Notes: generated by a model not told the origin, from the sequence alone. A DNA stretch of 64,000 bases from Patescibacteria group bacterium (GCA_041651355.1 JBAZJK010000001.1:613883-677882); one strand, 5' to 3'; numbered from the stretch's first letter, positions 3,590-24,614 are shown. Numbers and translations: made by a program.

Positions 3590-4672
3590 CTAGATGATTA
3601 GTTTAACTAAACGCCAATACAGGCCCAATATCGGGTTGGCTATATAGCGCAGCAAAGGATTATTAATTTCTTGAAAATTAATCTGGCCGACGAAATCTTT
3701 AGCTATTTCTTTAAAGGGTACTACCTGGAATGATCTTATGTTCCGCCTCTCTTGAAAAATCAAACGATAGGTTCCCGGCCTGAGATAATAACGGTAAGCC
3801 TTGCTTAAATCTGGAAACCAGCCGCCGACCAAAGCATAAAAGATCATGCCAAGATTCATCAAGAAAAGAGGCAAGGACAATAAGATGATTAAAGCCCAAG
3901 GATAAAAAGAAAGTACAAAAAGGCAGCGATTCCTTTCCATATAATAAACCATCTTGATACTGCGCTTGAATTCATACTTATGATAAATGCGGGCAAGAGG
4001 CGCTAATACAATCTTATAACCGGCTAATCTAGCTTTTAATCCTAATTCCAAATCATCATGGTACATGTAGTACTCTTCATTATAGCCCTTGATCTTAGCG
4101 ATCAATTCTTTCTTCATCATCAAAGCGCAGCCGCTGGCATAGCCCTTAATCTCTGGATAAGGAGCGGATTCCAAAAATTGCCTAAAAGCTTCTTCTCTCT
4201 GGCCATAGCCGCGGGTAAAGCCGAAGCCCAAAAAATGAACCAGGTTACCGATGCTATTTAAAAGCGAAGCGGACTTATCCTGATTTGCCTCATGGAGAAG
4301 AATCTTAGCCTGGACAATCCCTATCTGGGAATCGCTGCCCAAGGCGGTGGCCATCTCAAACAGGCAATCCGGATCCAACTCCGTATCCATGTTAAGGATT
4401 GTCACATAATCGCAAGCGTCAGCGAGCGCCATCTTAATGCCTAAATTATTGGCGGCAGCATAGTTGCCATCCGGCCGAGGAAAAATATTAATGTCAGGAT
4501 AATTTTTTTTCAAAAAAGCTAAAGATTCCGGGCTAGAGGCGTTATCAACGATATAAACCCGATAAGAAAAATTTCCAAGCCTCTGTTTTTGCAGGCTGGC
4601 AAAACAAGCCTCTAAATACTTAGCGGCGTAATCTTTATAATTTATCAGGATGACTCCGATTAACTTAGACAT
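3590..4672 (-). CDS. Family 2 glycosyltransferase with C-terminal membrane segment
   Basis: IGVILINYKD...VYIVDNASS...YYMYHDDLELG GT2 motifs, followed by hydrophobic helices (FYPWALIILLSLPLFLMNLGMIFYALVGGW). Confidence 0.75.
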   Translation of the reverse strand: MSKLIGVILINYKDYAAKYLEACFASLQKQRLGNFSYRVYIVDNASSPESLAFLKKNYPDINIFPRPDGNYAAANNLGIKMALADACDYVTILNMDTELDPDCLFEMATALGSDSQIGIVQAKILLHEANQDKSASLLNSIGNLVHFLGFGFTRGYGQREEAFRQFLESAPYPEIKGYASGCALMMKKELIAKIKGYNEEYYMYHDDLELGLKARLAGYKIVLAPLARIYHKYEFKRSIKMVYYMERNRCLFVLSFYPWALIILLSLPLFLMNLGMIFYALVGGWFPDLSKAYRYYLRPGTYRLIFQERRNIRSFQVVPFKEIAKDFVGQINFQEINNPLLRYIANPILGLYWRLVKLII

Positions 4673-22106: not shown

Positions 22107-23105
22107 TTAATCGGAATATAACCAATAAATATCTAATAAACGCTTTCTCAAATTAAAGGTCTGGCCACTACTTAAAAGCCCTAAATAAGAAGCTAAGTTC
22201 GCCGGCTCTGAACGACAAGACATCTTTCTTAACATCCGCCGCCTAGTCTTGGTTCTTAAAATATAGTAATCGGGAAAATATATATGCCCAAGAAAATCAA
22301 CACCACTAGCTAAAGTTTTTAGATGCAATTTGGTTGGATGGAGTTCTAGTTTCAATCTTTCTCGCAAAAAACCTTCTAACAAGGTCAGCTTGTCTGACAG
22401 ATAATCACAATTGTCAGATAATATGGCAAAATCATCGGCATAACGAAAATAATATTTTACCTTCAAATCATTTTTTACAAATTGATCAAATTCATTCAGG
22501 TAGATATTAACGAATAATTGTGAGGTAAGATTACCCAAGGGCAAACCTTTACCGGGCTGGCAAGAAAAACTCCTAATAATATTTTCTAAAAGGCTCATAA
22601 TCCTCTCATCATCAATATATCTCCTTAAAATGACTATCAAAATTTCTTGATCAATACTATCAAAAAATCTCTTGATATCCGCCTGCAAAACCCAGACTGT
22701 TCTAGTTTTATTTAAACTAACTTTTCCACTAGCGCGACGAAATGCCAGCCCGGCTCGATGCGTCCCCTTGCCTAGCTGACAGGAATAAGAATGGGCAATA
22801 AAAAGCTGACTAAAAAACGGGTAAAGTTGGCGACAAACGGCATGATGGACGAGACGATCACGGACGCTGGCTTTATGAATATGTCTTAATTTAGGATCGC
22901 TGACATAAAAATCTTGATATCCTCCGTGTTGATACGAACCATTGGCAAGCTCAACCTGAAGTTGTAAAATATTATCGCCCAGATGTAAGGAAAATTTTAT
23001 CACATCTTTTTTATTTTTCTTACCAATAATAAATTCGCGCCAAGCCGCTAACAAATTTTCGCCATTACTTATCTCTGAAAATTTAATTAATGATTTTTTA
23101 CTCAT
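22107..23105 (-). CDS. DGR-type reverse transcriptase
   Basis: RT motifs ADIKRFFDSIDQ, LPLGNLTSQLFVNIYLNEFD (DGR-type motif 4), YFRYADDFAILS (YxDD), GVDFLGH and SYSCQLGKGTH. The ATG at 23105 (MSKKSLIKF...ENLLAAWREF) aligns with the N-termini of known DGR RTs. The ORF track extends to a GTG at 23156. Confidence 0.9.
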   Translation of the reverse strand: MSKKSLIKFSEISNGENLLAAWREFIIGKKNKKDVIKFSLHLGDNILQLQVELANGSYQHGGYQDFYVSDPKLRHIHKASVRDRLVHHAVCRQLYPFFSQLFIAHSYSCQLGKGTHRAGLAFRRASGKVSLNKTRTVWVLQADIKRFFDSIDQEILIVILRRYIDDERIMSLLENIIRSFSCQPGKGLPLGNLTSQLFVNIYLNEFDQFVKNDLKVKYYFRYADDFAILSDNCDYLSDKLTLLEGFLRERLKLELHPTKLHLKTLASGVDFLGHIYFPDYYILRTKTRRRMLRKMSCRSEPANLASYLGLLSSGQTFNLRKRLLDIYWLYSD

Positions 23106-23112
23106 GTAAAAT

Positions 23113-23469
23113 ATGCTAATATTACCCCCCCCCGATAAAAATTTTTCAATTCTCACAAAATTAAATGGAGCCTATCTTTTTTGGCAAGTTTCTTTCTTGC
23201 AAATGTCACGTTTGCATCGTTATTCCTTAGGAATCAAGATAGACAATCTTTTTACTGAAACATTAAAATTAATTCTAGCGGCCAAATATTCTCACCGCGA
23301 CCAGAAACTAGAATTCATTAACCAAGCGATAATAGAGCTGGACACTTTAAAATTTTTCCTCCAAATTAGCTGGCAAAATAAATCCTTGGATGACAAGAAA
23401 TATCTGCAACTTAGTGCTTCCCTAGCCGAAGTTGGAAAGATTATAGGTGGTTGGAAAAAACTGTTTTAA
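23113..23469 (+). CDS. avd: Avd-like four-helix-bundle accessory protein (23S rRNA-IVS protein family)
   Basis: FWQ...LQMSRLHRYSLGIKIDNLFTETLKLILAA...LDTLKFFLQISW...LAEVGKIIGGWKKL is the pattern of four-helix-bundle proteins found next to DGR RTs. An in-frame TAA at 23107-23109 forbids an earlier start. Confidence 0.6.
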   Translation: MLILPPPDKNFSILTKLNGAYLFWQVSFLQMSRLHRYSLGIKIDNLFTETLKLILAAKYSHRDQKLEFINQAIIELDTLKFFLQISWQNKSLDDKKYLQLSASLAEVGKIIGGWKKLF

Positions 23470-23472
23470 AAA

Positions 23473-23491
23473 CCCGCTTCAAAGAAGCGGG
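23473..23491 (-). terminator. GC-rich hairpin 9 nt 3' of the TR (intrinsic terminator on the minus strand)
   Basis: cccgcttc-aaa-gaagcggg, an 8-bp stem. The minus-strand reading is followed by TTTTT. Confidence 0.6.
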
Positions 23492-23640: not shown

Positions 23641-23895
23641 TAAAAAATCGTCTCCCGCCTTCCTGGCCACCACCCCTTCAATATTTCGTCGGGGTTGAAT
23701 ATAACTTGGGATTTTTAAATCCGCCAGCGGGAAACGCCAAGTATTTTATTTTTAAAAAATAATAACCGGCACGCTAACCAACCGTTTAATTGATTATTCT
23801 GACCAAAATATTATTTTAGAATTCGGCCGCTTACAGCCGTAACCGTAAGCTGATTCGCCTACTATCCAAAGTCATCTTAGCATATTTTTATCTAC

Positions 23896-23984: not shown

Positions 23985-24614
23985 TTACTTGCAAACAGCC
24001 AGGAAACGGCAACGCCCAACCCAGTCATTGTCAAACCAGTTGAGATTGAGCTCACGCCTGTTGTCGTCGACATCCAGAAAAGGCGCGTCGCGATTGCCAT
24101 TGGCATTCTGCCAAATAGAACCCAGGGCGATAATGGGAAATTTTCTCTGCAAGTCTGGGTATGATGCGCCCAGGGCGAGCAGTTCGACCAAGGTGGCAGG
24201 ACGATAGCCTTGTTTATCCATTTCTTCAATGGCTTTCTGACTACTGATACTGTGGCCGAAATGGAAAAGCTTGGCTTGGACCTGAAGGCTTTGCCCGGAT
24301 AGTTCTACTGGCAAGGGGAAATTTCTAGCATTAACGTCGCCGTTATTCCAGTCATAACGACCAGCGGCAATCATTTGCTCCAGAGTGAGAGAATAGTCAA
24401 TTTTGAGCAGGAACCCGGATTGTTCGGGTTTAGCCGAATTAACATCGATTTTGACCGGGTCTATCTGTCCGGTAACTACTGCGTACATCTTTTTAGCCAG
24501 CGCATTGTCGCGGCTGTTTATGATTTCCTGACAAAGTTCGTCAGTGAATCCGGCTTTTTTAAGAGCCAAGAAGAACTCATGCCCTTTTCCGAGAGCGGCA
24601 CACATTTCGTTCAT
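23985..24614 (-). CDS. DGR target (variable) protein, 209 aa, no signal peptide
   Basis: The C-terminus GSIWQNANGNRDAPFLDVDDNRRELNLNWFDNDWVGRCRFLAVCK is encoded by the VR. The upstream segment GYRPATLVELLAL resembles the conserved core that precedes the VR in C-type-lectin-fold DGR targets. Confidence 0.85.
   Translation of the reverse strand: MNEMCAALGKGHEFFLALKKAGFTDELCQEIINSRDNALAKKMYAVVTGQIDPVKIDVNSAKPEQSGFLLKIDYSLTLEQMIAAGRYDWNNGDVNARNFPLPVELSGQSLQVQAKLFHFGHSISSQKAIEEMDKQGYRPATLVELLALGASYPDLQRKFPIIALGSIWQNANGNRDAPFLDVDDNRRELNLNWFDNDWVGRCRFLAVCK
23986..24125 (-). repeat. DGR variable repeat (VR), the last 46 codons of the target gene
   Basis: 132/140 identity to the TR. Differences lie at 24013, 24014, 24016, 24019, 24020, 24053, 24079 and 24089, all opposite TR adenines. 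Confidence 0.9.

Follow-up and report, generated by a model that had tools for sequence, protein, structure and literature searches.

The window analysed here is a 64-kb stretch of DNA from a genome labelled 'Patescibacteria group bacterium' by NCBI (window G+C content 42.6%). It contains a complete diversity-generating retroelement (DGR), in which the reverse transcriptase (RT) and avd genes stand head-to-head with their ATG codons 7 nt apart. The features that make up the element, with positions counted from the first nucleotide of the window, are:

22107..23105, minus strand: DGR reverse transcriptase, 332 aa, also 332 aa according to the gene caller; PF00078 (RVT_1), E 1.3e-20
23113..23469, plus strand: avd (accessory variability determinant), 118 aa; Pfam PF22296 (bAvd), 47.1 bits against a cut-off of 40
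23473..23491, minus strand: terminator-like hairpin CCCGCTTCTTTGAAGCGGG followed by TTTTT (T5), directly 3' of the template repeat and abutting the avd stop codon
23501..23640, minus strand: template repeat (TR), 140 nt, 94% identical to the variable repeat
23986..24125, minus strand: variable repeat (VR), at the C-terminus of the target ORF
23985-24614, minus strand: target ORF, 209 aa, carrying the VR

The RT has both motifs of the form [I/L/V]GxxxSQ and YxDD by which DGRs are recognized (LGNLTSQ at residue 190 and YADD at residue 222), and the TR/VR relationship is adenine-specific, all 8 mismatches in the 140-nt pair falling at TR adenines. An AlphaFold2 model of the window Avd is a four-helix bundle (pLDDT 89.4) with helices at residues 11-30, 33-59, 62-88 and 94-116 and with residues 1-7 disordered, and the protein has a weak profile match to the Avd entries 4DWL and 8UB7. 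An [I/L]GxxxSQ RT, a four-helix Avd, adenine-specific TR and VR copies and a VR at the target C-terminus are shared with the DGRs for which the element of Bordetella phage BPP-1 is the prototype. The reversed avd of the window is taken to be architecture B3, which makes up 90% of the CPR set of Wu et al. (2018; PMC5758913), and the element fits DGR clade 2, which is restricted to Patescibacteria (Roux et al., 2021; PMC8144416).

The terminator-like hairpin is placed where the 3' ends of the TR and avd converge. Because the hairpin and its T5 directly follow the TR, the TR RNA probably stops short of the avd/RT junction, which suggests that it is a separate short transcript. The segment immediately 5' of the TR (minus strand, 23642-23769) matches the Rfam RT-16 RNA (RF03019) along the whole model, but below threshold (33.4 bits, gathering score 50, E 0.014). 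It may form a structured leader for the template RNA of the DGR; in 20 related loci no match to RT-16 RNA was found at the gathering score.

The feature under study is a simple-sequence repeat of nine cytosines, read off the window sequence at 23125-23133 of the plus strand (CCCCCCCCC), which makes up codons 5 to 7 of avd (Pro-Pro-Pro). Both the placement of the tract and the choice of ATG 23113-23115 as the avd start had been proposed in an earlier sequence-only reading of this DNA, and both agree with the coordinates checked here, including the in-frame TAA at 23107-23109 that lies just before the ATG. That reading had also remarked that it saw no comparable G/C homopolymer in the window, and the count confirms this: besides the C9 there are just two C6 runs and one G6 run, with no other G/C run longer than 6 nt in the 64 kb. 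Under a first-order Markov model, approximately 0.3 G/C runs of at least 9 nt would be expected in total across the window, and approximately 19 of at least 6 nt, compared with 4 observed. G/C runs are therefore depleted in the window and the C9 stands out beyond what the simple Markov model implies. The strongest evidence against a chance origin of the tract is the comparison with related loci given below.

Read on the minus strand, the tract becomes a G9, and 19 nt separate its end from the RT ATG downstream at 23105. The sequence-only reading had assigned this G9 either to the RT leader or to an N-terminal extension of the RT beginning at GTG 23156, and only the first assignment stands. RT homologues are mostly 331-336 aa long and start at a methionine equivalent to ATG 23105, which is most likely the start of the window RT as well. 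The candidate start at GTG 23156, which would add 17 codons containing the tract, was rejected because homologues begin at the equivalent of ATG 23105; in addition, the 'extended' RT calls resemble one another only as the reverse complement of conserved avd codons, and the extension is closed by tract changes other than multiples of three.

The tract is in a position to change the avd frame. Simulated tract lengths of C6, C9 and C12 give a full-length Avd, while C7, C10 and C13 lead to a stop after 7 to 9 codons (8 for C10) and C8 and C11 to a stop after 16 or 17 codons (16 for C8), in agreement with the earlier claim that gain or loss of one C would frameshift avd. The window avd is in frame, the ON state. 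In the AlphaFold2 model the tract falls in a floppy leader that can probably tolerate one proline more or less. Two properties expected of a contingency locus are found here, namely a G/C repeat of at least 7-8 nt inside the 5' coding region (C9, codons 5-7) and a one-unit change that toggles avd between intact and truncated forms, the latter by simulation in the window and by gene calls in its relatives.

The avd repeat in related loci

A scan of a genome collection with the window RT returned 80 loci with RTs 53-60% identical to it, from many Patescibacteria lineages, among them Saccharibacteria, Paceibacteria, Doudnabacteria, Kerfeldbacteria, Microgenomates and Levyibacteriota. A divergent avd homologue adjoins the RT in 75 of the 80 loci, and these 75 relatives together with the window form the clade set of 76 loci considered here. 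The sequence-only reading had counted absence of the tract from orthologous DGRs, along with no length variation in deep reads, against its idea; the tract proved to be widespread: a simple-sequence repeat occurs at the same avd site, between the upstream ATG and Avd helix 1, in 73 of the 76 loci, the remaining three comprising two repeat-free loci with an ordinary N-terminus and one that is masked with N. In 65 of the 73 repeat loci the repeat is a run of 6 to 17 cytosines (C9 in 22 loci, C10 in 21, C8 and C11 in 8 each, C7 and C12 in 2 each, and C6 and C17 in one each), and in the other 8 it is (CA)n, (CT/TC)n or (GA)n. In all 65 of these loci the cytosines are on the avd strand. This is a point against the switch proposed below, being a hint of common descent or of an extra constraint, for example from the Avd prolines or from the G run in the RT leader.

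Runs of G or C are concentrated at this one site, with approximately 65 of the approximately 71 runs of at least 7 nt in approximately 478 kb of related loci lying at the avd/RT junction. Among the G runs elsewhere are a G10 at L051 273-282 and a G9 at L046 1171-1179; these are not at avd genes, one being beside a transposase-like ORF and the other after a GC-rich hairpin. In a rough, unbootstrapped neighbour-joining tree of the RTs, the loci with dinucleotide repeats fall in at least five separate positions among the poly-C loci. Since different repeat types share one orthologous site, selection would seem to act on repetitiveness (mutability) and not on a particular sequence, which argues that the selected property is the repeat character of the site.

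As a control set we used 80 Avd relatives from IMG/VR. The repeat is present in 3 of the 4 IMG/VR loci with an RT at least 50% identical to that of the window (C8, C11 and (GA)19), but no 5' repeat in avd was found in the 11 divergent IMG/VR loci with RTs 41-49% identical or in the approximately 63 co-directional avd-RT loci of phage type, making 0 of 74 for the more distant Avd loci of IMG/VR overall. The absence of a repeat at the avd start from the co-directional loci sets canonical DGRs apart from the present element. By this comparison of sequences, the putative switch is a conserved feature of a Patescibacteria DGR subclade with divergent avd and RT genes, and not a peculiarity of one genome.

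Length changes, reading frame and DGR activity

Queries with the window Avd, RT and flanks found two assemblies of the window organism, a MAG and one Logan contig, both with C9, although the two may share the same reads. Its closest avd relatives are the L082 family, which have C9 in the ON state in 10 contigs, and L092, which has C9 yet is OFF, C10 being needed there for the frame. The RT of L092 (1348-2352) is split by an in-frame stop (…KVS*NHTK…) and its avd is out of frame too, which may reflect decay of the element or else a problem of assembly or recoding.

Differences of one repeat unit (C9/C10, C8/C9 and (CA)9/(CA)10) were found between contigs whose RT proteins are 100% identical, and the repeat change is often the sole indel in 2.5-4.4 kb and flips avd between full-length and truncated forms. 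In the P0149 family, with identical RT protein and identical flanks, L115 and L118 have C9 and an avd called as 126 aa, beginning MPLNSTPPRQILPVMQK..., whereas L116, L117, L119, L120 and L121 have C10 and an avd called as 112 or 95 aa; over 4357 bp L115 and L117 differ by one mismatch and the tract indel. In the P0086 family, C8 is found in L122, L124 and L125 (avd 123 aa) and C9 in L123 (110 aa), and L122 and L123 are identical over 2559 bp bar the tract indel. The P0155 family has (CA)9 in four contigs and (CA)10 in two, with L109 and L112 differing over 4305 bp by one mismatch and a 2-nt indel. A metagenome pattern scan further yielded all three of C8 (L101, OFF), C9 (L094, ON) and C10 (L104, OFF) in the same flanks, 98.6-99.6% identical; L094 and L101 are 98.6% identical over 3 kb, and L094 and L104 differ outside the TR/VR copy by 2 substitutions and an indel. 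The heterogeneity in tract length (C8, C9, C10) anticipated by the sequence-only reading is thus seen among relatives of the window that are near-identical to one another, as well as among identical-RT contigs. At 471-770 of L104, a short contig, a VR-like copy and VR-side flank occur where the TR is expected beside avd, probably an assembly join through the TR/VR repeat.

ON and OFF states were called from consensus assemblies with a simple start-codon rule. The upstream ATG is in frame with the Avd domain in 19 of the 73 repeat loci, the window among these; in the other 54 it is in another frame (52 loci) or absent (2 loci), and allowing possible GTG or TTG starts would lift the ON count to approximately 23 at most. 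A split of 19 ON to 54 fits one third in frame (p = 0.21) and rejects the 95% in frame that an ordinary gene would be expected to show (p = 3e-54). Beyond the repeat, every one of the 54 OFF loci has an avd frame open for 112-130 codons, compared with 111-132 in ON loci, and Avd similarity scores are alike in the two groups (Mann-Whitney p = 0.53). These open frames and equal scores indicate that the OFF loci are not decaying pseudogenes.

The state of the repeat can be set beside the variation in the VR in a few families. Across the L082-L090 contigs (C9, ON), which are approximately 99.5-100% identical outside the VR, the TR (2899-3038 in L082) is identical in all contigs and the VR (3401-3540 in L082) differs between samples at 20-23 TR-adenine sites, giving at least 3 VR haplotypes; between L088 and L082 the 20 VR differences are the total mismatches over the aligned 3657 bp. 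On these alignments L082-L090 are a clear case of apparently ongoing DGR diversification. In the OFF pair L095/L096, whose members share 99.945% identity over 7254 bp, neither the TR nor the VR differs. In the P0149 family, both ON and OFF contigs have diverged VRs. The relationship between ON/OFF state and VR divergence therefore agrees with a switch only anecdotally, in one ON family and one OFF pair.

A proposed switch on avd and competing readings

In our view the C9 tract is likely to act as a slipped-strand contingency switch on avd and thereby to gate the activity of the DGR. The reversible frameshift switch suggested from the window sequence finds support in its relatives, both in their conserved repeat and in their one-unit differences between ON and OFF alleles. 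In the proposed mechanism, slipped-strand mispairing during replication would add or remove a C in the avd leader. With C9 (or C6 or C12), ATG 23113 would read into the four-helix-bundle domain and Avd would be made, and in its presence the DGR would be able to rewrite the target gene's VR. In a C8 or C10 allele, an early stop would leave the cell without functional Avd and diversification would halt, to resume when a further slip restored the frame. DGR reverse transcriptases need the accessory protein Avd for cDNA synthesis, and in the Bordetella DGR Avd is reportedly required for both cDNA synthesis and homing; by analogy, loss of Avd would be expected to shut down a DGR of the window type. 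We infer that the changes in length stem from slips in replication, at rates that are high and reversible, and also that switching is adaptive. With somewhat less assurance, we favour extending this to a clade-wide 'mutator of the mutator', in which the avd-leader repeat would stochastically turn hypermutation on and off in subpopulations, permitting a burst of diversification after which a useful variant is locked in.

The competing explanation that survives best, although we regard it as unlikely, is recoding, in which every allele starts at the upstream ATG, slippage of RNA polymerase or +1/-1 frameshifting by the ribosome along the C run gives some in-frame Avd, and the tract serves as a dimmer holding Avd at a low level instead of an ON/OFF switch. 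CCC-C proline codons are frameshift-prone slippery sites (tRNA-Pro, m1G37, EF-P), most loci are out of frame and yet have an intact avd domain, as if 'OFF' alleles need some Avd, and such recoding could operate alongside switching at the DNA level. However, programmed frameshifting has one fixed direction and a slippery motif, whereas the OFF loci require +1 and +2 corrections about equally frequently, the three frames are roughly equal, and dinucleotide repeats substitute for the C run. These (CA)n, (CT)n and (GA)n replacements are classical DNA-slippage repeats which, to our knowledge, are not ribosomal or transcriptional slippery sites, and length differences are seen directly in the DNA of near-identical strains.

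We give rather less credence to an untranslated tract, that is, to Avd starting downstream (at TTG, GTG or a non-canonical codon) with the repeat as a 5'-UTR or promoter element tuning the transcription of RT, avd or both. A random distribution of frames, with approximately one third of loci in frame, would also be expected if the tract were untranslated, and in 47 of the 73 loci a TTG or GTG follows the repeat by no more than 12 codons, so that some relatives could make a short Avd isoform whatever the tract length. The window also has a promoter-like TTGAAA-N19-TAATAT, its spacer spanning the G9, 13 nt upstream of the RT ATG. Against this, 26 of the 73 loci have no such start within 12 codons. 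An avd start beyond the tract, which would have told against the sequence-only reading, is not available in the window, where the avd frame is free of ATG, GTG and TTG from the tract as far as codon 29; because helix 1 comprises residues 11-30, a start from codon 29 onwards would remove it. Moreover, in nearly all OFF loci an upstream ATG reads into the tract without a stop, though in a different frame, and the residues between tract and helix 1 are kept through synonymous changes: across the NFSILQKL codons, the eight that follow the tract, differences among the window, L082 and L092 are almost all synonymous, a pattern indicating that the codons directly after the tract are translated. As a sigma-70 promoter spacer for the RT the tract was rejected as a general explanation, since a -35-like TTG at a workable spacing (15-21 nt) is present in only 6 of 67 loci and scanning the window for promoters gives a background-level count (4 found, 3.0 expected). 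On the RT strand of L002-L081, a TA directly 3' of the G run was observed in 24 of 67 loci, and TAnnnT, a point in favour of a promoter element, in 19 of 67. The TA corresponds on the avd strand to a Thr codon (ACC) preceding the prolines, and may reflect either a -10-like element or a coding constraint.

A role for the G run on the RT strand, as RT ribosome-binding site, part of the template RNA or structural element of RNA or DNA with the avd overlap incidental, is very improbable. The orientation is uniform, with G on the RT strand in every one of the 65 loci, and the spacing to the RT ATG is fairly constant, mostly 13-22 nt, but the length of the tract spans 6 to 17 and (TG)n, (AG)n or (TC)n replace the G run in several lineages. 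Shine-Dalgarno-like motifs were found upstream of 0 of 41 large ORFs (at least 200 aa) in the window, where leaders are AT-rich and translation initiation appears to be Shine-Dalgarno-independent, and for this reason the G9 was rejected as a ribosome-binding site. A place within the TR RNA is unlikely given the terminator-like hairpin, which would end that transcript approximately 340 nt before the tract, and an Rfam scan found no known RNA family at the tract.

Finally, that the tract is ordinary coding sequence for a conserved Pro-Pro-Pro and the out-of-frame cases are pseudogenes or errors of sequencing or assembly is scarcely credible: full-length homologues do share PP or PPP before helix 1, some platforms are prone to homopolymer errors and a few of the MAGs are long-read assemblies, but the lengths recur in independent assemblies (with identical flanks, C10 in 5 contigs and C9 in 2; C9 in the 10 contigs of the L082 family), dinucleotide repeats free of homopolymer error vary at the same site, full-length avd frames stay open in OFF loci, and 54 of 73 loci out of frame far exceeds error rates.

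Known systems and consequences

Slipped-strand phase variation at poly-G/C tracts is known from Campylobacter jejuni, Neisseria, Haemophilus and Helicobacter, from Type III methyltransferases (phasevarions) and from the pili of Bifidobacterium breve. The avd repeat shares with these SSR contingency loci a run of G or C, at least 7-8 nt long and close to the 5' end of an ORF, with one-unit frame toggling, a length that varies, among the relatives, between close strains, the coexistence of ON and OFF alleles with a maintained downstream ORF, and a depletion of G/C tracts otherwise, here in the 64-kb window. It differs from them in its host, which is an uncultivated member of the Patescibacteria (CPR) and not a host-adapted pathogen, in the conservation of one orthologous site across many class-level CPR lineages, and in what would be controlled, a hypermutation accessory factor instead of a surface or restriction-modification gene, such that one mutational switch would gate another.

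Poly-C/G phase variation in promoter spacers is known from Bordetella fim2/fim3 and Neisseria porA/opc, and repeats in divergent promoters from Haemophilus hifA/hifB. The present repeat likewise lies between two divergent genes and could in principle affect both. Unlike in the promoter-spacer systems, it is inside the coding leader of avd, and a spacer promoter can be drawn for the window (19 nt) but for 6 of 67 loci overall. In published open-access full text we found no mention of a repeat, homopolymer or phase variation at the avd or RT gene of any DGR. The best-supported reading is a DGR clade with what appears to be a built-in, conserved SSR phase switch; the mechanism itself would be that of a classical SSR contingency locus.

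We know of no general control mechanism for DGRs, and continuous mutagenic homing would erase adaptive VR variants. If the proposed switch is real, the avd repeat would provide simple, heritable and reversible control of a DGR, and would bring the logic of contingency loci into the candidate phyla radiation, far from the pathogens in which it was defined. It would also explain the OFF state in most assemblies (approximately 70%) and many of the inactive-looking DGRs of metagenomes. Tract length modulo 3 would then serve, from sequence alone, as a readout of DGR state; thousands of metagenomes already in existence could be scored for it and the scores correlated with VR diversity. Annotation would be affected as well, in that the avd of such DGRs would often be called truncated or missed, and the 'Avd-less' or 'inactive' CPR DGRs of surveys may be phase-OFF alleles.

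Two further observations concern genes near these elements. In the (CA)n family L109-L114, a gene with a RecO_N domain follows the DGR RT 10 nt downstream and on its strand (for example L109 3512-4147), and in L101 a group I intron (Rfam RF00028, 77 bits; 4408-4652, minus strand) is located in a tRNA gene cluster a few kb from the DGR.
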